NCBI RefSeq assembly: GCF_965230735.1
Contig: NZ_OZ246016.1
Coordinates: 765,194-829,193 of the forward strand
DNA from: Motiliproteus sp.
GTDB taxonomy: Bacteria; Pseudomonadota; Gammaproteobacteria; Pseudomonadales; Balneatricaceae
Length of the DNA stretch: 64,000 nucleotides
Reading direction: 5' to 3'
The position numbers were made by a program, and so were the translations under genes. Below, in pieces: positions 18,996-26,195 of this stretch. The notes below the pieces were generated by a model. It searched no databases and had not been told where the DNA came from. It was given only the letters and a program-made list of their open reading frames with translations. Positions within the stretch are counted from its first letter, which is position 1; every line of letters begins with the position of its first letter.

Positions 18996-19999
18996 TCAGC
19001 GATTCTTACTGATCCATTTTTGCAGCCGCCACTGTCCTTCGATCCACTTTCCCGGTAGCAGTATGGCTCTTAAAAGGCCCTGCTTAAATTGATCGCTGGT
19101 GCCTGAAGGAATCTCCATCGATGGGTCACAGTAGCTGCGATATAGTCGTTGCCAGCCCAAGTGAGACAGGTAAGTGATGCGCCCGCTGAGACGGTTGGCT
19201 CGCTCATCATCCGCAAACTTGCTGTTCAGTCCCAGGCCGATAGTCTCGGGCTCGCCGACGACAAGGTTATTGGCATAACAGATATCGCTGATACGCTTTA
19301 ACCGATCAGAGTATTCATGCAGGTGTTGGAGTTCGATGCTGGGATCGAATTTCTGCAAGGCGGCAAGCCAGAACTTCTGCGTGCAATCCGGTGGGAAGTA
19401 GGGGCTGCCCAAGCCTTGGACTTTCCCCAATCTGTCGGGATCGAGCTGATAATCCTCAAACAGAGCTAGATCCCAAAGTACCAGCAGGTCTTCGGTCAGA
19501 CCAAAATAGAAGAAGTCGCAGGCGTGAAACACCACCGGCATCCCCTTGGCGTATTCGCGGGTAAAGGTGTTGTTGACCACCACCCGTTCTTTCAAGAACG
19601 CATACTCGGGGTGACGCTGGCTGAACTGCTGTTGCAGGGTCTTAAACTGATCCCCGACCAGGAAATTATCCGAGCGAAGCTTCATCGCATAGCGGTCTTG
19701 ACCCGTTTCAACCCTTCCCGGGATGAGACGATCTGGCGATTGTTGTTGAGCTTGCCGGGGGTGCCATCGGCCAGATAGCGGTAGATATTGGGGCCGGGAT
19801 CCTCACAGATGACGAGTTCATCGTAATCCAGCCCTTGCAGATTTTGATCTGGCCAGGTCGACAGAATGATGTGGGCGCCCGGCAGGTACTGCCGAATACT
19901 TTGGAGACTACGATAGGTGATCCCTTCGTCCATTGGGCGGTCGTCCCGCGCTTGGACCGGTCCTTGAACGACGACACTGATGTCTGCATTGTTGATCAT
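18996..19999 (-). pseudogene. wavE: WavE LPS synthesis protein, frameshifted into two ORFs (19682-19999 and 18996-19685)
   Basis: ISVVVQGP, IILSTW, NNNRQIVSSREGL end in KTAMR*, and the next ORF starts MKLRSDN. Adding one C (ACC GCT to ACC CGC T) gives continuous KTRYAMKLRSDN and a 334-aa protein. Confidence 0.85.
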
Positions 20000-20718
20000 G
20001 GTGTTTGCTTCAGTACCGCTTGGTATTCATCGGGAGTGCCGCAGAAGATCACTTCTTCGGGGTCAATGACCGAGTAACGGATATCCTTAGCATCACGAAT
20101 GGCCAGGTTGTATATCGGGGCGATATAGAGCTCTCCCGCGTCCAGTCGATCGGTTTCGAACTGGCTGTACTCTTGATAGTAGTGGCGGTATAGCTCGGCG
20201 CTGGCCCAATGGTAAAGACCGGTGCAACAGAACTCCGAGATCTCCTGCTTTTCAGCGGTTCGGATTACCCGGTCGGAGCCCGGGGCCTGTGGCTCGATAT
20301 TGCTCCAGTTCTTACCTGAACCGATAAAGGTTTCCAGATAGCCATCGGCTTGATCACAGAACCCGGGCTTGCGGTAGTTGGGGCGGAAGGTATCAATATT
20401 GAAGATATACAGCGGTTCGTCGGTCAGCCCATCCAGCCCCAACGCCACGGTTTCTGCCTGGCCGCCGGTGGGTTGATTCAGGATAACCAGCTGGTAATCG
20501 CGAATACCCAACCGTTTGGCCTCGGTCTCGACAAAGGCGGGAGTATCAAACTGATCTCTGACGATAAACAGGAAGGGGTCGGTGTCAAAATAAGCGCTGA
20601 AGCTGCATACCGAGTGGGCAAACAGACTCTGACCATGGGCGTCGAGCTTGTACTTGGGTTCGGTATAGCCGGCACTGAAAAAGCGCGACGACATTCCAGC
20701 CATCGGTATCACGAACAT
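19996..20718 (-). CDS. Nucleotidyltransferase/GT-A fold capsule/LPS biosynthesis protein (BcbG-like)
   Basis: VIPMAGMSSRF, PKY, TGGQAETV, IFNIDT, CTGLY, GELYIAPIYN, FCGTPDEY. Confidence 0.75.
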   Translation of the reverse strand: MFVIPMAGMSSRFFSAGYTEPKYKLDAHGQSLFAHSVCSFSAYFDTDPFLFIVRDQFDTPAFVETEAKRLGIRDYQLVILNQPTGGQAETVALGLDGLTDEPLYIFNIDTFRPNYRKPGFCDQADGYLETFIGSGKNWSNIEPQAPGSDRVIRTAEKQEISEFCCTGLYHWASAELYRHYYQEYSQFETDRLDAGELYIAPIYNLAIRDAKDIRYSVIDPEEVIFCGTPDEYQAVLKQTP

Positions 20719-22305
20719 GGCTGTTCTCCTTGAAGTTCGGCGTAGAGACGATAGGCATTTGCCAGCATGGTCATCTGTCGTTCCGGCTGGTCATTGTGAA
20801 GCGGAAGCATCGACAGAAAAAGCTGGACTCCAATGGCTTGAACGCAATCTTGAAGTTGTGGCTGGTCGCTGAAGAAGACTTCATTAAAGGCTTGATTGAT
20901 CCCCAGATGATAGGTTGCCGCATAGTCGCGTAACTCCAATCCGGAATCCGTCTGTTTGGCCTTGAGGCGGCCAGCAATGATCAGGTCATAGAGACCGTGC
21001 ACGGAATGGTAAAGCTTGGCGTAGTCATAACGGCTGTCGCCATAGAGGGTCGGTCTGCCTTGCGCATCGATGCCCCTTGGGTCGATAACTTTGATCCGAC
21101 GGGTGCGGAAGTCGTAGAGGATGTTGCTGAAGCAAAAGTCGCCATGAACGATCGCAACATTCTGCAGGGTTGCTGCCGGAATCCGCTCGCTACTCTGTTC
21201 GGCAATGTCACGAGGTGATGGATACAGGGTGCCATTGAGATGAATCGGCTTATCGATATCAACACCGCTGTGGATGGCGAACTGTTCCAACCTGTCCAGG
21301 GTTTTGGGTAGGTACAGTGAATCAATGTCAGTGGGATGAAGTTCACTGGACTCCGGCGAATAGGCTTTACAGCGGGCTAGGAAGCGGTGGCAGGATTGGA
21401 AGATTCGACGCCAGGAGGCCTTTGCCAGATGACCGAAGACGAACAGATCGCTGAGCGGGAGGTTGTAGAGGTACTCCAGCGAATAGCCGGCACGGTCACC
21501 GTCATTGAAACGGCTTAGCAGCTTGGGGCTGTAGATCTGGATATCATTGGGAAGAGCTTCAAACCAGTTCGCTTCACCTTCCATTTTGTCCACTTTGTGG
21601 CTGGATTTACGCGCGGTGCTGCGATTGATTTCCAGTGCATTGAAGCTGCGCTGAGTGGTAAAGGCGGCTCTCGAATTGAAGTAGGCGTTCAGATGGCCGA
21701 AATCGAACCAATCATTGGCCTGCACCAGGCTGATTTCAAGCTGTTCGTGGTATCGGTTGATCGCACCGATAAAATCGCCCCGTTGTTGGGTCAGATGGCG
21801 GACTAGCTTAAGAGAGGAAGAAAAACTGAAATAGCCGCTGGCGACGATATCGCCGTCAACAGCCAACTGCCAACTGCTCGTCCAGTAATTGCGCTGAATG
21901 CTGTTGGCTTAATGCACGACGGTAATATCCGGAGTTGGGAGAGATACTGACCAGATCGTTTCCTTTCGGAAGGTTCTGGAAAAGTGTGTCGCCGTGCAGA
22001 ATCTGTAATTGAGAGTTTCCACACTGTGCCATATTCAGACAATAAAGCACCGACTCTCCCAAGCTCAGCCCCTCGGGCACGGTAATCAGCTTAACGCTAT
22101 GCTCGGCAATGAATGCCTGTTCATAGTCGCTCAGTTCAAAACTCTCCGGAATCGACAGGTAGATATCATCAGAGAGGGGTTCTGCCAGAGCGATCTGGTA
22201 TTCGTACAGACAGCGATTCCCCAGCGGTAGAAAGCTGGGAGGAAGGCACCCCAACTCGCTGGCAAACTCCTGGCTGATATAAGCCCCGGAAGTGATCAGG
22301 AACAC
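20709..22305 (-). pseudogene. NTP-transferase-like + APH/choline-kinase-like fusion (BcbE-like), split by a 7-bp duplication
   Basis: 5' ORF (LITSGAY, LPPSFLPLGN, ILHGDTLF) and 3' ORF (WFDFGH, HGDFCFSNIL, VIDPRG, LFLSMLPLH). Removing one GCCAACT copy gives ...DEQLAVDGDIVASGY... and one 529-aa ORF. Confidence 0.85.
21862..21877. repeat. 7-bp tandem repeat GCCAACT x2.3 causing the frameshift
   Basis: GCCAACT GCCAACT GC read directly at 21862-21877. Confidence 0.9.
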
Positions 22306-22698
22306 TCAATTGCCCTCTTTCAAGCGCTGGGCTTCATCTGCGAGCAGCTTGTCGATTTGTACGGGCTCCAAGCTGGCAAACTCACTGGGTCGAATCGCTT
22401 TGTTATCAACGTAGAAACCTTCAAAGCCGCACCAGGGCTTGCCTACTTGAACCTCATCGTAGGGAACCCGATGCCGGTCAAGCCATTCCAGTATGGTCGG
22501 TAACGTATGTACATTGATCTTGCCGATGTCGCCTTGATACGTACGCATATTGCGGGCGGTGGCAATACAGATCTCGAACCCCTGTTCTTTGTAGTGGCGT
22601 AGCTTCTCGATAACCGCTAGGTTCGGCTCTTTGGACTCGTAAGGGCCGGGCTTGTCTATCGTCAGGGTGCCGTCCAGATCGATAACCAGTTTTTTCAT
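22306..22698 (-). CDS. HAD-IIIC capsule biosynthesis phosphatase (EcbF/BcbF family)
   Basis: VIDLDGTL, ATARNMRTY, KPWCGFEGFYVDNKAIRPSEF; its TGA directly abuts the GTG of the next gene. Confidence 0.85.
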   Translation of the reverse strand: MKKLVIDLDGTLTIDKPGPYESKEPNLAVIEKLRHYKEQGFEICIATARNMRTYQGDIGKINVHTLPTILEWLDRHRVPYDEVQVGKPWCGFEGFYVDNKAIRPSEFASLEPVQIDKLLADEAQRLKEGN

Positions 22699-22713: not shown

Positions 22714-23808
22714 TTAGCGATTAGATTCAAGAAGGTGCCGGAAAAATGCCCGCGTGTTGGCTACCGCCTGATCGACAGTGAAATGATCCGCTAATCGCTG
22801 TCGTGCGGCCTTGCCCATCTGATGTCGATCTTCAGGCGAATCGATCAGCCGTTTGATCGATTCTCCAAGTGCGGCACCGTCTCCGGGGGCAACCACTAGC
22901 CCCGATTCTCCACTGACGATTAACTCGGCACTGCCGCCGGTGTCCGTTACCACGCAGGGAAGGGCATAGGCCATCGCCTCGATCACGGTTTTGGGTAAAC
23001 CTTCGCGTTTTAAGGAGGGCAGTACCGAGATATCACTGGCACTGACCAGGGCTGGAACGTCGTTACGGAAGCCCGCCAAGTGGATTCGTTCCCTGGCCGG
23101 GCTTTGTTTCACCTGGCTGGTAAATTCTTCAGCATCCATACCTCCGCCGACCAGTATCAAGTGGGCGTCGGTATCAATTTGGCCAAAGGCTTCAACCAGT
23201 AACGGCATCCCTTTACGTGGCCTGGCATTTGCGACGCAGATTACCTTGACGGCAGATCCGGGGATCCCGAACTCGGCCTCTAAATCTGCTGGCTTAACAT
23301 CCTCGTACCAGCGCAGGTCGTGGCCTTTGTAGACGGTGACGACGTTAGATTCTGGTAGAAAAACTCGGGGTCGCAGGTCATCTCGAACGGCGTTAGCGAC
23401 GCCGATAATGCCGTCGATGCGAGGGTTCAGGTGGGTTAGATAGCTGGCCGGATCATGGCGGTAGATATTACCGGTCTGGCCCCGGTAGTTGACGACCTTG
23501 ACCGGTAGGCCAATGGCGGCCAGAGCACCGTTGACGATCGCCTTGTTATTGAACAGGTACAGAATATCGTAACTACCCTGCTTGAGCTCGTGTCGAATAC
23601 GGCGAATGGCTGCCCAACTGAATTTTTTTTGTGGATGATAATCGATGACCCGAATGCCCTGTTCCTCAAAACGGGGAGCGTACTCGGATTGACCCTGGGT
23701 CATCAGGGTAAGGTCCACACCGGCTTTATGGAGGCCGATCAACATCTCGGCTTCCGGTCTGACACTGTTCCAAGTATCGGTATAGGAGCTGATAACCAGT
23801 ACTTTCAT
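22714..23808 (-). CDS. GT4 glycosyltransferase
   Basis: CVANARPRKG, GFRNDV, SVLPSLKREGLPKTVIEAMA, TDTGGSAE. Confidence 0.9.
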   Translation of the reverse strand: MKVLVISSYTDTWNSVRPEAEMLIGLHKAGVDLTLMTQGQSEYAPRFEEQGIRVIDYHPQKKFSWAAIRRIRHELKQGSYDILYLFNNKAIVNGALAAIGLPVKVVNYRGQTGNIYRHDPASYLTHLNPRIDGIIGVANAVRDDLRPRVFLPESNVVTVYKGHDLRWYEDVKPADLEAEFGIPGSAVKVICVANARPRKGMPLLVEAFGQIDTDAHLILVGGGMDAEEFTSQVKQSPARERIHLAGFRNDVPALVSASDISVLPSLKREGLPKTVIEAMAYALPCVVTDTGGSAELIVSGESGLVVAPGDGAALGESIKRLIDSPEDRHQMGKAARQRLADHFTVDQAVANTRAFFRHLLESNR

Positions 23809-23935: not shown

Positions 23936-24976
23936 ATGCCCAAACTATTACATATCAATCTATCCAGTGCTTTTGGCGGTGGCGAGCGCCAAACGGCTAA
24001 TCTAATCAGCTTCCTTAGCCGGCAGCCCGATATGGAGCAGATACTGATTACTCGGCCGGGCAACCCATTGGCTGAACTGGGCCAACAACATGGATGTCAG
24101 GTTATAGAAGCCAAGAATCAGCTGCAGCAGCATTTTTCACCGCTATGCCGAGGTGTGGATCTGGTGCACTGTCATGATGGCCGATCGGTCTACTGGGGGC
24201 TGTTGCATCGCTGGTTGAAGGGTACTCCTTATGTGATTAGCCGCAGAGTCGAGCACCCGATCAGTGCCAAGCGATCATCACGCTGGGCCTATCAGAATGC
24301 CGAGAAGATCATCTGCTTGAGCCGAGCAATCCGATCCCAGGTGGCTAAGGTGGCGCCGATCGATAAAACAGTGATCATTCCTTCGGCATGCTTTCCCGTT
24401 CCAAGCGATCCCGAGAAGTCGGCAGCGATTCGGGCATGCTATCCGGGTAAGCGGCTGATTGGCCAGATAGGGGCTCTGATCGATCTTAAAGGTCAGCGTT
24501 ATACGCTTGAGGTGGCCAGGCAACTGCAACACAGCCATCCTGATGTTCACTTTCTGTTCTTGGGGTCTGGGCCAAATCTGGGATCGCTGAAACAACAGGC
24601 GGCGGGCTTGAGCAATGTGGAGTTTGTTGGGCAGGTCCAGAATGTTGGAGATTACCTGGCGTGCTTTGAACTGCTGTTGATGCCGTCACTGATGGAAGGG
24701 TTTGGTTCGACCATTCTCGAAGCCATGCATCATGGTGTCGCGGTGATCGCGTCTGAAGTGGGTGGAATTCCCGATATTATCCAAAACCAGTCCAATGGGT
24801 TGTTGGTACCGCCAGCTGACAGCCAGTCACTGGCGAATGCAGCAGTTTGCCTATTAGACCACCAGGCCGAGCGAGAGCAGATTGCCGAAAACGGCCGTCA
24901 GACGGTGGGTGCCTACCGCCCGGAAGTGGTCTTTAACCAGTGCTGGACGTTATACCAGAATCTGCTGGGCTGTTAG
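23936..24976 (+). CDS. GT4 glycosyltransferase
   Basis: Likely ATG 23936; FGGGERQ, HCHDGRS, LKGQ, PSLMEGFGSTILEAM, SEVGGIPDII. Confidence 0.9.
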   Translation: MPKLLHINLSSAFGGGERQTANLISFLSRQPDMEQILITRPGNPLAELGQQHGCQVIEAKNQLQQHFSPLCRGVDLVHCHDGRSVYWGLLHRWLKGTPYVISRRVEHPISAKRSSRWAYQNAEKIICLSRAIRSQVAKVAPIDKTVIIPSACFPVPSDPEKSAAIRACYPGKRLIGQIGALIDLKGQRYTLEVARQLQHSHPDVHFLFLGSGPNLGSLKQQAAGLSNVEFVGQVQNVGDYLACFELLLMPSLMEGFGSTILEAMHHGVAVIASEVGGIPDIIQNQSNGLLVPPADSQSLANAAVCLLDHQAEREQIAENGRQTVGAYRPEVVFNQCWTLYQNLLGC

Positions 24977-26195
24977 ACGGCGTCCCATGCAAGCGCTTTT
25001 GATGACTCAAGCAACCGGCTAGGATGACCACCAGGGCTACCAAAAATACGGTAGTTATGTTGTGGCTTAACATCGCCTGCGTCAGGCCAAAATCAACATA
25101 GCCAAATACCAGTAACAAACCAGCGGTGGCCAACTGTAAGTCGACTGATCGCATCCGATAGAAGAAACGTAACAGTAGCGCGTAAAAGGCGAGCAGGGCT
25201 GCCAAACCGAACACTCCCAGCTCGGCCAGGGTTGTCAGCATTTCACTATGGGCATGACCATAGCCGATATTACGGGCAACCTGCTTTTGGCTAATCAGTT
25301 GCTTGACGCTGCTTCGATACTCTCCTTCGCCAACTCCGAATACGGGGGACTGTTGGAACATAATCCCAGCGGCACGCCACATCTCTAAGCGAGTGCCCGC
25401 TGAGCCCTCTACACTGCCTTCTTCCGATAGATAGCTGATCGTATCAGCTACAGCCTTATCAACTTTGTATTTGACCAGTTGATTATTTTGATAGACGCCC
25501 AAAGTCGCTATTAAAAAGCATGCATAGATACCGAAGCGTATGGGTTTAATTTCTATAGCTTCGCGAAGAATTAGCCACAGCATAACCGGGATTGCGATCC
25601 AACCCCCACGGGTTCCTGAAGTAATGGATCCCATCAATCCAAATCCAAAAGCAATAATCGCTAACATAATCAGCCATTTGCTCCGTGGATGGTCCGGTTT
25701 CGGCTTGATGCAGTAGGTCAACGACAGCACACCTAGTATTAGCGATAGATCACCAAAAGAAATCTTAGAGATATATCCATGAGCTACCACCAAGCCGAGC
25801 ACATATTTTTGATAGTAACCAAAACATCCCGCCCCGATCGCACCGATAAAAAGTCCGGCATAGAGCCAGCTTTTTGAGGCGCCAAAGCGCCGGACGGCAA
25901 AGAAGATCGGTAGCACCAGCAAAAATCTGGAGGCAATATCGAAATCGGCCAGATCGCTGTTCTGGTGCACCAGCATGTTGATTAATACCGCCAGGGGGTA
26001 GATCGCCATGGCCACCAGCAGAAGCTTCTCGTCCTGCTCCAGCTTAATGCCCCGGTTATGGCGGGTCAGCAGCATGGCGATCGACAATAACAGCATTAGT
26101 AAGGCGACGGCACCGATCGATCGATCGACCACCAACAGCAGGGCGGTGAACAGCATTAGTGCCAGGTTAAAGCCTTGGGAGAGTACAGCGTGCAT
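24933..26195 (-). CDS. waaL: O-antigen ligase
   Basis: Multi-TM; SGTRGGWIA, large periplasmic loop with SAGTRLEMWRAA, GVGEG, HAHSEMLTTLAELGVFG. Confidence 0.85.
   Translation of the reverse strand: MHAVLSQGFNLALMLFTALLLVVDRSIGAVALLMLLLSIAMLLTRHNRGIKLEQDEKLLLVAMAIYPLAVLINMLVHQNSDLADFDIASRFLLVLPIFFAVRRFGASKSWLYAGLFIGAIGAGCFGYYQKYVLGLVVAHGYISKISFGDLSLILGVLSLTYCIKPKPDHPRSKWLIMLAIIAFGFGLMGSITSGTRGGWIAIPVMLWLILREAIEIKPIRFGIYACFLIATLGVYQNNQLVKYKVDKAVADTISYLSEEGSVEGSAGTRLEMWRAAGIMFQQSPVFGVGEGEYRSSVKQLISQKQVARNIGYGHAHSEMLTTLAELGVFGLAALLAFYALLLRFFYRMRSVDLQLATAGLLLVFGYVDFGLTQAMLSHNITTVFLVALVVILAGCLSHQKRLHGTPSNSPADSGITSSTG

Follow-up and report, generated by a model that had tools for sequence, protein, structure and literature searches.

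The Motiliproteus sp. module described here is probably a recently inactivated version of a widespread and mobile four-gene cassette that places a furanose, most likely beta-D-fructofuranose, on surface glycans. It was found in the window, i.e. the whole 64,000-nucleotide stretch of DNA that was analysed. Three of its products form a triad: a HAD phosphatase, a fusion of a nucleotidyltransferase-fold domain with an APH-type kinase, and a separate nucleotidyltransferase of 240 aa (NT240). The triad may be the missing bacterial route to nucleotide-activated beta-D-fructofuranose, via fructose-2,6-bisphosphate and fructose-2-phosphate, a proposal to which we give about an even chance. The cassette points to a bacterial fructose donor pathway because the Vibrio cholerae core locus and fructose-bearing capsule loci share it. 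In the literature searched, we found no paper naming a bacterial NDP-fructose donor, and only gene-deletion phenotypes for the activation of fructose for capsules or LPS.

Organization and inactivation of the module

The minus strand at 18996-22698 carries four translationally coupled genes within an LPS-core locus, in the order EcbF/BcbF-family HAD phosphatase, fusion, NT240 and WavE. The open reading frames lie exactly at the following coordinates:

22306-22698, minus strand: HAD phosphatase, 130 aa, intact (TIGR01689 and PDB 1xpj matches)
21856-22305, minus strand: N-terminal fragment of the fusion, 149 aa, ending at a premature stop that results from a duplication (aligns to residues 1-146 of intact homologues)
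21863-21876, minus strand: 7-bp tandem duplication, CAGTTGG twice on the coding strand, which shifts the fusion frame (direct sequence; the protein alignment breaks exactly there)
20709-21866, minus strand: C-terminal fragment of the fusion, 385 aa, with the rest of the nucleotidyltransferase-like domain and the APH-type kinase (Pfam APH PF01636)
19996-20718, minus strand: NT240, 240-aa nucleotidyltransferase of the VC0230/4evw type (PDB 4evw match)
19682-19999, minus strand: N-terminal fragment of WavE, 105 aa (PF07507 positions 1-97, 140 bits)
about 19693-19695, minus strand: loss of a single base in WavE, CCC to CC relative to intact relatives, in the VKT-RY-AxKLRSDN motif (protein alignment and DNA comparison with L009, L010 and L087)
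18996-19685, minus strand: C-terminal fragment of WavE, 229 aa (PF07507 positions 100-285, 153 bits)

The fusion starts immediately behind the stop of the HAD, and overlaps exist at the fusion/NT240 and NT240/WavE junctions. On one flank lie the LPS-core genes for a Kdo transferase, an MsbA-type ABC exporter, a lipid A acyltransferase and a GT2, and on the other flank those for two GT4 glycosyltransferases, an O-antigen ligase and a GT9 heptosyltransferase. Coordinates, junctions and flanking genes thus confirm the coupled minus-strand HAD/fusion/NT/WavE unit that the preliminary description had placed in a core locus. The module's neighbours are LPS-core genes only, and neither an arabinose-5-phosphate isomerase nor DNA glycosyltransferases were found among them.

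In the sequence as assembled, two of the four genes are broken. No single intact frame of about 520-540 codons is present for the fusion, which is split at the duplication; its two fragments are jointly colinear with the whole of intact 520-540-aa homologues, and the C-terminal one is 57% identical to the protein of Motiliproteus sediminis. Likewise, an intact WavE of about 310-340 aa with the T-x-Y-A-x-K-L-R-x-D-N motif was not found, the conserved Tyr being lost in both frames. Both WavE fragments exceed the PF07507 gathering cut-off of 27 bits, and the C-terminal fragment is 79% identical to the M. sediminis WavE. With the fusion and WavE each split by a frameshift, the sugar branch is therefore not made as encoded. 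Judging from the sequence, the inactivation of the module as assembled looks recent, because nearly all other conserved residues have been retained: none of 80 conserved columns is altered in the fusion and 1 of 36 in the HAD (D to N; conserved meaning, for both proteins, the same residue in 95% or more of the homologues), and none of 59 in NT240. The module of M. sediminis, in the same core-locus context, is intact (HAD 130, fusion 527, NT 239 and WavE 340 aa).

Predicted functions of the four proteins

The assignment of the HAD to the EcbF/BcbF family, made initially from the sequence, was borne out, the protein scoring 190.8 bits with TIGR01689 (cut-off 162) over positions 1-122 of the 126 in the model; a scan of the same genome with this model returned the module HAD as its single match. 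The protein matches PDB 1xpj with an E-value of 2e-50; the next PDB match is GmhB, whose weak similarity falls short of significance (E 0.3-0.4). Its motif I reads DLDGT; in the 'DD' motif the second position, occupied by Asp in 95% or more of 72 homologues, is here an Asn.

The fusion had been described as an NTP-transferase joined to a kinase. An AlphaFold model of an intact orthologue contains both folds: its N-terminal part resembles the sugar-1-phosphate nucleotidyltransferases MurU (among the best matches, with a TM-score relative to target of 0.61-0.64), HddC and GalU, and its C-terminal part resembles APH kinases. The kinase domain carries the HGDFCFSN and IDPRG...GDxRYD motifs. However, the nucleotidyltransferase-like domain lacks the catalytic signature: where the fusion of phage DLP_6 reads AAGSGQRF..PK, bacterial fusions read SGAY..QE..PPSF. 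The signature is absent from bacterial fusions and from ORF236 of phage phiRSL1, with a separate nucleotidyltransferase always adjacent, whereas the stand-alone DLP_6 fusion retains it. Motif comparison thus revealed no catalytically competent nucleotidyltransferase domain within the bacterial fusion, and this domain, devoid of the Arg/Lys signature, is probably a non-catalytic partner.

Because the fusion has lost this signature, NT240 is probably the working pyrophosphorylase of the module. Its own signature, AGxSSRF...PK, is intact and GalU-like, with G8, R12 and K22 invariant, and aligns to that of UTP-glucose-1-phosphate uridylyltransferases of the GalU type. It matches PDB 4evw, annotated 'nucleoside-diphosphate-sugar pyrophosphorylase', with an E-value of 8e-79. 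WavE, for its part, models as a distant GT-A-like fold (pLDDT 93); its best structural matches are the GT-A glycosyltransferases GT6, WrtF and B4GALNT1 (E about 4e-5), with low TM-scores of about 0.3.

Counterparts in Vibrio cholerae and in capsule loci with fructose

In V. cholerae, the core locus has all four genes of the module in an identical order (VC0232-VC0229: HAD, fusion, NT, WavE), adjoining waaA, waaF and waaL, which substantiates the link between wavE and the V. cholerae core that had been drawn beforehand. The gene numbers could be fixed with published primers: those for VC0231 lie within the fusion gene and those for VC0229 within the WavE gene. Between V. cholerae and the window or its relative, identities are 61% for the HAD, 41% for the fusion, 54% for the NT and 41% for WavE. 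All four are intact in V. cholerae, where a second WavE paralogue lies alongside, whereas the window's fusion and WavE are frameshifted. As the V. cholerae HAD is 100% identical to PDB 1xpj and the NT 99% identical to PDB 4evw, two proteins of this module already have crystal structures without a function, and no published biochemical function was found in the literature for any of VC0229-VC0232. The V. cholerae core contains fructose. VC0231 and VC0229 have been reported as needed for the adsorption of phage VP3 (PMC10458087).

Related genes had also been expected in the loci of fructose-bearing glycans, and homologues of the HAD (126 aa), the fusion (522 aa) and the NT (243 aa) do occur together in the Escherichia coli K4-type capsule locus. 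Of the K4 counterparts initially named (KfoD, KfoI and KfoE), the HAD, in the KfoI position, and KfoE were recovered, but the third gene is an unnamed one encoding the 243-aa NT and not KfoD. The M. sediminis fusion is homologous over its full length to the 522-aa KfoE (36% identity, E 2e-117), and the published kfoE deletion arms flank exactly this open reading frame. Deletion of kfoE leads to unfructosylated chondroitin in E. coli K4 (PMC7925653, PMC8858990), and bcbE and bcbG mutants of Pasteurella multocida lose the fructose side chain (PMC13552107). In the literature, a dependence of fructose on these genes is documented for kfoE, bcbE and bcbG only; no LPS structure of Motiliproteus was found. 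The P. multocida triad appears to consist of BcbE (NT), BcbF (HAD) and BcbG (fusion), BcbE and BcbG being assigned by gene length and order only: bcbE, bcbF and bcbG measure 711, 375 and 1566 bp, the sizes of the NT, HAD and fusion genes, and this order is also found in E. coli 118UI.

As in the window, the HADs of K4 and P. multocida belong to NCBIfam TIGR01689, and in K4 KfoE corresponds to the fusion and the 243-aa NT to NT240. In contrast to the window, where the genes lie with WavE in an LPS-core locus, these are ABC-transporter-type capsule loci without WavE, and the transferase is therefore another protein there (KfoD- or 562-aa-type). In published work KfoE goes by the name of 'fructosyltransferase', yet its architecture is kinase/NT-like. 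Campylobacter jejuni HS:1 adds fructose without the triad, via a single different gene, HS1.08 (PMC7901785).

Distribution of the module

The triad was detected in at least 561 species-representative genomes. Among 81 loci from Proteobacteria, Bacteroidota, Campylobacterota and Desulfobacterota, NT240 is present in all, the order HAD-fusion-NT240 is kept in 72, and WavE occurs in 27, mostly LPS-core loci, usually directly after NT240. In 201 Vibrionaceae genomes, WavE and the HAD are both present in 29 and both absent from 166, with WavE only in 2 and the HAD only in 4 (p = 2e-28); this almost perfect co-occurrence (HAD in 29 of the 31 genomes with WavE) agrees with the linkage of the two genes proposed at the outset. 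The O-antigen cluster of E. coli O78 also holds all four genes. In the tree of fusion proteins, the window's sequence shares its subclade with those of M. sediminis, E. coli O78 and a Desulfuromonadales MAG, apart from the subclade of the fructose-linked KfoE and VC0231; the substrate identity for the window's subclade is therefore extrapolated.

Enzymatic precedents and proposed pathway

The kinase, phosphatase and nucleotidyltransferase logic foreseen in the preliminary description now has a characterised homologous precedent, since the phage proteins AfhE (an NT-kinase fusion) and AfhF (a HAD whose best PDB match is 1XPJ) make UDP-D-arabinofuranose from Ara-5-P via Araf-1,5-P2 and Araf-1-P (PMC13326640). 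These enzymes of phage HY126, like RB69 gp52:53/gp51 and DLP3 gp82/gp81, have the architecture of the window's fusion and HAD; in their chemistry, a furanose omega-phosphate is phosphorylated at the anomeric position, then loses its distal phosphate and is finally nucleotidylated. The window's HAD matches 121 phage records, among them homologues of RB69 ORF051 (RB69 gp51 being an AfhF-type phosphatase), and its fusion matches those of phages phiRSL1 and DLP_6. Identities between phage and bacterial proteins are only about 26-31%, but the homology is detectable by sequence. The systems also differ. The phage enzymes use Ara-5-P with a dedicated isomerase for DNA hypermodification, whereas the window's neighbours are those of an LPS core; and the phage fusion performs both steps, whereas the bacterial fusion is always paired with its separate NT.

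Other pathways offer partial parallels. In GDP- and ADP-heptose synthesis (HddA or HldE, GmhB, HddC or HldE), an omega-phosphate is likewise converted to a bisphosphate, a sugar-1-phosphate and an NDP-sugar, and two of its enzymes reappear among the matches, HddC as a structural match of the fusion's NT-like domain and GmhB as the next PDB match of the HAD. Its sugar is, however, an aldoheptopyranose, and heptose kinases belong to the GHMP or ribokinase-like families, not to APH. AmgK/MurU pairs an APH-family anomeric sugar kinase, acting on MurNAc, with a MurU-type NT, but as separate proteins, with no phosphatase and in a cell-wall recycling role.

D-fructofuranose-6-phosphate is the 1-C-hydroxymethyl analogue of D-arabinofuranose-5-phosphate. 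By analogy with the phage route, we propose that the APH-type kinase domain of the fusion would phosphorylate the anomeric hydroxyl of fructose-6-phosphate, giving fructose-2,6-bisphosphate, and that the EcbF/BcbF-family HAD would take off the 6-phosphate to give fructose-2-phosphate. NT240 would then form NDP-fructofuranose with an NTP, probably UTP, and WavE would transfer the fructofuranose to the LPS core. We infer both the identity of the sugar and the role of WavE as transferase.

Alternative explanations

The same enzymology could serve, in the subclade of Motiliproteus and O78, to activate a different phosphosugar, giving D-arabinofuranose (from arabinose-5-phosphate) or another furanose. 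The only biochemically characterised homologues, AfhE and AfhF, do use Ara-5-P, which is present in every Kdo-making bacterium, and the position of the window's fusion away from KfoE and VC0231 would fit, as would its grouping with E. coli O78, whose published repeat unit is not known to contain a ketose. Nevertheless, we consider this explanation unlikely. The bacterial proteins form a compact family, far from the phage enzymes, whose branches measure 4-9 changes per site where the median is 0.29; the fusion keeps 80 conserved columns, the HADs are 57-72% identical across subclades, all genetic data on bacterial members point to fructose, and the locus is without the dedicated arabinose-5-phosphate isomerase of the phage clusters. 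An activation of the LicA/LicC kind, in which the kinase and a cytidylyltransferase would act on a small alcohol (such as choline, ethanolamine or glycerol) to install a phospho-linked substituent other than a sugar, with WavE as a phosphotransferase, is very improbable: such a route can do without a HAD phosphatase, although 72 of the 81 loci have the HAD in synteny, the K4 and P. multocida mutants lose a hexose and not a phospho-group, and the NT240 signature is that of sugar-1-phosphate uridylyltransferases.

It is also conceivable, but improbable in our view, that the triad makes the donor for a neighbouring glycosyltransferase, e.g. the GT4 at 22714-23808, while WavE performs another core step. 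Homologues of this GT4 (45-61% identity) lie beside the module in many loci, the similarity of WavE to GT-A enzymes is weak, and the triad of capsule loci functions in the absence of WavE. Against this, WavE hardly ever occurs unless the HAD is also present (29 of 31 genomes) and usually follows NT240 directly, V. cholerae has the triad and WavE with no homologue of the GT4, and WavE again accompanies the triad in the O-antigen cluster of O78, whose backbone can be made by three other glycosyltransferases. We thus retain WavE as the candidate transferase of a fructofuranose donor made by the triad.

Implications

The activation of fructose matters for the chondroitin of E. coli K4, the haemorrhagic-septicaemia capsules of P. 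multocida and the V. cholerae core, which is a phage receptor. Linking the cassette, the K4 and P. multocida genes, VC0229-VC0232 and the phage UDP-arabinofuranose enzymes yields a specific pathway of three steps that is open to testing in vitro; these four lines of evidence together reassign KfoE, which would be a kinase and not a fructosyltransferase, and single out WavE as the candidate transferase, which would represent a new family of GT-A-like enzymes that add fructofuranose to LPS. When glycans are released in the usual way, by acid hydrolysis, ketofuranosides are lost. Given this loss and the number of genomes that carry the triad, fructofuranose on LPS and capsules would, if the proposal is true, be far commoner than published structures show, and hidden acid-labile sugar branches are predicted on well-studied antigens such as that of E. 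coli O78. What this means for the Motiliproteus genome is less far-reaching: an accessory branch of its LPS core appears to have just been switched off by two frameshifts.

The module and its LPS-core locus

The module in this genome is of the type represented by VC0232-VC0229 of Vibrio cholerae and seems to have been broken recently. The genome, from the marine gammaproteobacterial genus Motiliproteus, is complete (3.96 Mb), and its minus strand at 18996-22698 holds six open reading frames that make up four genes:

22306-22698, minus strand: HAD phosphatase of 130 aa, NCBIfam TIGR01689 ('EcbF-BcbF capsule biosynthesis phosphatase'), 190.8 bits with a cut-off of 162
Minus strand, two ORFs of 149 and 385 aa: fusion of a nucleotidyltransferase-like and an APH-type kinase domain (hereafter the fusion), jointly aligning end to end with intact proteins of 520-540 aa
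Minus strand: separate nucleotidyltransferase of 240 aa (NT240), matching PDB 4evw, 'nucleoside-diphosphate-sugar pyrophosphorylase' (E 8e-79)
Minus strand, two ORFs: WavE, Pfam PF07507 positions 1-97 and 100-285

The four genes are translationally coupled as one unit, their starts and stops abutting or overlapping. The neighbouring genes mark this as the LPS-core locus: those on one flank encode a Kdo transferase, an exporter of the MsbA type, a lipid A acyltransferase and a GT2 enzyme, those on the other a pair of GT4 enzymes, an O-antigen ligase and a heptosyltransferase of family GT9. The preliminary description, which had reported a minus-strand unit of four genes in a core locus and an EcbF/BcbF-family phosphatase, agrees with the ORFs, their coupling, the neighbours and the TIGR01689 score. 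None of the four genes has a second copy in the genome.

Two neighbouring genes deserve mention. Just upstream of HAD lies a GT4 gene (22714-23808) with module-adjoining homologues of 45-61% identity in Photobacterium, Marinobacter, Motilimonas, Psychromonas and Corallincola. Within Motiliproteus it is present in just 4 of 20 genomes, and it may belong to a larger mobile unit of five genes. The O-antigen-ligase (Wzy_C) gene at 24933-26195 is situated in the lowest-GC kilobase of this region (0.487 against about 0.55-0.60) and has no counterpart at the equivalent site of Motiliproteus sediminis; there the genes for the heptosyltransferase and GT4 are direct neighbours. The ligase gene was probably acquired separately.

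Frameshifts and probable recent inactivation

The lesion in the fusion, read directly from the sequence, is a perfect 7-bp tandem duplication (CAGTTGG on the coding strand, 21876-21863). The upstream frame ends in '...DEQLAVGC*' and the downstream frame resumes with '...LAVDGDIV', at the '...MAVDD...' of intact homologues. In WavE, one base is lost from a CCC run at about 19693-19695, within VKT-RY-AxKLRSDN, the motif best conserved in the family. All four genes are intact in M. sediminis HS6 (130, 527, 239 and 340 aa), in matching context.

Columns with a single residue in at least 95% of homologues were counted as conserved. The fusion has changed at 0 of 80 such columns, NT240 at 0 of 59 and HAD at 1 of 36. 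This sole change apart from the frameshift sites is an Asp to Asn replacement in the acidic 'DD' motif of HAD ('FYVDNK'), where at least 95% of 72 homologues have Asp. Because the copies are nearly pristine apart from the frameshifts, inactivation is probably recent, or, as regards the one-base lesion in WavE, possibly an assembly error; a clean 7-bp duplication is atypical as a sequencing error.

Distribution and synteny

In the protein collection the fusion family makes up over 1500 clusters at 90% identity, and species-representative genomes gave at least 561 matches. Synteny was examined in 81 loci (80 retrieved loci and one from E. coli); L-numbers in this text denote individual loci. NT240 adjoins the fusion in all 81 and HAD lies directly upstream in 72. 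This triad occurs in Vibrionaceae, Alteromonadales, Acetobacteraceae, Caulobacterales, Prevotellaceae, Campylobacter and Desulfovibrionaceae, among others. WavE accompanies it in 27 of the 81 loci, mostly with homologues of WaaA, WaaF or WaaL nearby, that is, in LPS-core loci; in capsule loci, unrelated large proteins take the place of WavE. Two proteins considered as WavE homologues, KfoD and a 562-aa protein of an E. coli plasmid locus, were rejected for lack of homology.

WavE was found in 0 of 400 genomes in an even sample of the class, and its co-occurrence with HAD was therefore judged on 201 sampled Vibrionaceae genomes. Both were present in 29 of these, WavE without HAD in 2, HAD without WavE in 4 and neither in 166 (Fisher's exact test, p = 2e-28). 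Thus WavE is rare and its presence is tied to the triad, as expected if WavE uses the product of the triad.

After that of M. sediminis, the fusion closest to ours (62-63% identity) is in a Desulfuromonadales MAG (JAAXQG010000139.1, L010) with all four genes adjoining WaaA, WaaF, WaaL and GT homologues, which suggests that a whole core-locus segment was transferred across phyla. A 129.5-kb plasmid of E. coli (NZ_CP071075.1, 87185-89935, L005) has a kps-type capsule locus (KpsM/T, KpsC/S) in which the triad is joined by a hexose-1-phosphotransferase of the Stealth family and a GT2/TagF-like protein; plasmids account for 4 of the 124 matches in E. coli. The triad is also present in Campylobacter bilis (L064). 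In C. jejuni IA3902, CJSA_1353-1355, in the HS1/8 capsule-locus insertion, are consecutive 'unknown' proteins of 240, 507 and 132 aa (PMC7901785, Table), the sizes of NT240, fusion and HAD.

Folds and catalytic signatures

The preliminary description of an NTP-transferase/kinase fusion was borne out by the AlphaFold2 model of the intact protein (pLDDT 87), which matches both aminoglycoside-phosphotransferase-type kinases and sugar-1-phosphate nucleotidyltransferases, with TM-scores relative to the target of 0.61-0.64 for MurU and HddC and 0.51-0.55 for GalU. When the PDB was searched with a profile of the fusion alignment, nucleotidyltransferase matches were marginal (E 0.011-0.017), and matches to TPR repeats were discarded as spurious. 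The hhalign comparison of the fusion N-domain with NT240 was weak (probability 3.9%, E 0.011) and served only to line up the signature motif.

In NT240, Gly8, Arg12 and Lys22 are invariant within 'AGxSSRF...PK', which aligns with the signature of UTP-glucose-1-phosphate uridylyltransferase. Bacterial fusion N-domains have 'SGAY..QE....PPSF' at this position, without the Arg and the Lys. Stenotrophomonas phage DLP_6, which has the fusion only, keeps 'AAGSGQRF...PK'; in Ralstonia phage phiRSL1 the fusion has lost the signature and a separate 240-aa nucleotidyltransferase follows directly. From these motifs we infer that nucleotidyl transfer in the bacterial cassette would be carried out by NT240, and that the fusion N-domain would be a remnant without catalytic activity or would serve for binding.

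No sequence-related solved structure was found for WavE. Its model (pLDDT 93) best matches glycosyltransferases of the GT-A fold, namely the GT6 blood-group enzymes, WrtF and B4GALNT1, with E about 4e-5 and TM-scores of only about 0.3. WavE is thus plausibly a nucleotide-sugar-dependent transferase, albeit a very divergent one.

Occurrence in loci for fructose-bearing glycans

The core of V. cholerae O1 contains fructose. In a Vibrionaceae genome (L092) the core locus reads waaL, waaF, waaA, HAD, fusion, NT240, WavE and a second WavE, which agrees with the V. cholerae wavE named in the preliminary description. This locus has a HAD with the sequence of PDB 1xpj (100% identity) and an NT240 that is 99% identical to PDB 4evw. 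Published V. cholerae qRT-PCR primers map without mismatch, those for VC0231 inside the fusion and those for VC0229 inside WavE; given this and the gene order, VC0232 is HAD, VC0231 the fusion, VC0230 NT240 and VC0229 WavE. According to the paper with these primers (PMC10458087), VC0229 and VC0231 take part when phage VP3 adsorbs, as would suit a common role in a surface structure. The two WavE paralogues of L092 (10606-11373 and 11749-12474) are adjacent and convergent, and a Psychromonas genome (G444, contig C2, L075) has three WavE copies within 9 kb, which suggests several WavE-dependent transfers per core.

In E. coli, the K4-type kps locus contains, in order, an epimerase, a KfoB-like protein, a chondroitin-polymerase-like GT, an IS, a 477-aa protein, HAD (126 aa, 56% identical to ours), a 522-aa protein, a 243-aa protein, UDP-glucose dehydrogenase and a GT2. 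Of these, the 522-aa protein is homologous to the fusion over its full length (36% identity, E 2e-117) and the 243-aa protein is a homologue of NT240, so that the related genes expected in this locus for a fructose-bearing glycan were indeed found side by side. The 50-nt 'kfoE' deletion arms of Badri et al. match without mismatch immediately before and after the 522-aa ORF (PMC7925653, Supplementary Table 3), and KfoE is therefore the kinase/nucleotidyltransferase-like fusion. Its deletion yields unfructosylated chondroitin (PMC7925653); the name 'fructosyltransferase' rests on this phenotype, which donor synthesis explains equally well. The 243-aa gene is labelled 'glycosyltransferase family 2 protein' in RefSeq, probably a misnomer for a nucleotidyltransferase. 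It is intact in TUM14697 (L091, 7835-8566) and frameshifted in E. coli E686 (L090, 13838-14559), where the annotated ORF covers only the C-terminal 149 aa and the annotation likewise gives kfoA and kfoC as broken.

The capsule of P. multocida type B has a fructose side chain, which BcbE, BcbF and BcbG were expected from comparative work to add and which is lost in bcbE and bcbG mutants (PMC13552107). BcbF is the namesake of TIGR01689. The lengths in the TraDIS tables (bcbE 711 bp, bcbF 375 bp, bcbG 1566 bp) are those of NT240, HAD and the fusion, and the order NT-HAD-fusion also occurs in E. coli 118UI. BcbE and BcbG were absent from the best 120 matches of two homologue searches; from gene length and order we infer that BcbE is of the NT240 type and BcbG of the fusion type.

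Proposed chemistry and weight of the readings

A precedent comes from phage HY126, the experiments on which are summarised in a 2026 article about phage DNA with arabinosylated 5-hydroxycytosine (PMC13326640). AfhE, with an N-terminal nucleotidyltransferase fused to a C-terminal kinase, converts D-arabinofuranose-5-P to the 1,5-bisphosphate, the Mg-dependent HAD phosphatase AfhF takes off the 5-phosphate, and AfhE then makes UDP-arabinose (PMC13326640). The homologous phosphatases RB69 gp51 and DLP3 gp81 have 1XPJ as their best PDB match (PMC13326640). 1XPJ is the VC0232 protein of V. cholerae. Our HAD matched 121 phage records, including RB69 ORF051 homologues, at about 30% identity, and the fusion matched ORF236 of phiRSL1 over its full length (29%, E 3e-39) as well as the DLP_6 fusion.

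Since D-fructose has the D-arabino configuration, fructofuranose-6-P is arabinofuranose-5-P with a hydroxymethyl group on the anomeric carbon. By step-for-step analogy with AfhE and AfhF, Fru-6-P would be converted to Fru-2,6-P2, then to Fru-2-P and finally to an NDP-fructofuranose. The heptose pathway with GmhB follows an equal logic, and GmhB was the next, non-significant PDB match of HAD.

The activated-ketofuranose module of the preliminary description is the best-supported explanation and can now be stated more sharply: we think it fairly probable that this is a recently inactivated cassette, most likely for beta-D-fructofuranose, with the donor made by the above steps and transferred by WavE to the LPS core. 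That the same scheme serves another sugar seems rather unlikely. Several observations limit the fructose reading or speak against it. In the fusion tree, a compact cluster of bacterial proteins stands well apart from the phage enzymes, with KfoE and VC0231 in one subclade and our protein, M. sediminis, the Desulfuromonadales MAG and E. coli O78 in another, so that fructose is an extrapolation for our subclade. No paper naming a bacterial fructose donor was found in the literature on UDP-, GDP- or CMP-fructose or fructose-2-phosphate. Also, fructose in C. jejuni HS:1 is added by a different single gene (PMC7901785), and the triad is thus not the sole route.

All four genes are found in the O78 O-antigen cluster of E. 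coli ETEC H10407 (NC_017633.1, 2329824-2348144; L099, 5798-11728), as a HAD-fusion-NT triad and a WavE-family gene with 57, 42, 45 and 36% identity to our or the M. sediminis proteins, together with three ordinary GTs, wzx and wzy. The published O78 repeat is not known to have a ketose or any sugar that would need these four genes. The three GTs suffice for the backbone and fructofuranosides are very acid-labile, so that a branch could have been overlooked; the K4 polysaccharide is defructosylated by hydrolysis. The cluster therefore suggests an unreported, possibly acid-labile side branch in O78.

Compared with the characterised kinase/HAD/nucleotidyltransferase scheme of furanose activation, the fructofuranose cassette would be a variant with a probable ketofuranose substrate, a nucleotidyltransferase split off and a dedicated candidate GT-A-like transferase. 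In the jumbo phage phiRSL1 (L098, 2395-8632), the fusion ORF236 and the separate 240-aa nucleotidyltransferase ORF235 adjoin genes for an APS kinase and a sulfotransferase-like protein, a hint that the phage encodes a pathway for a modified sugar.
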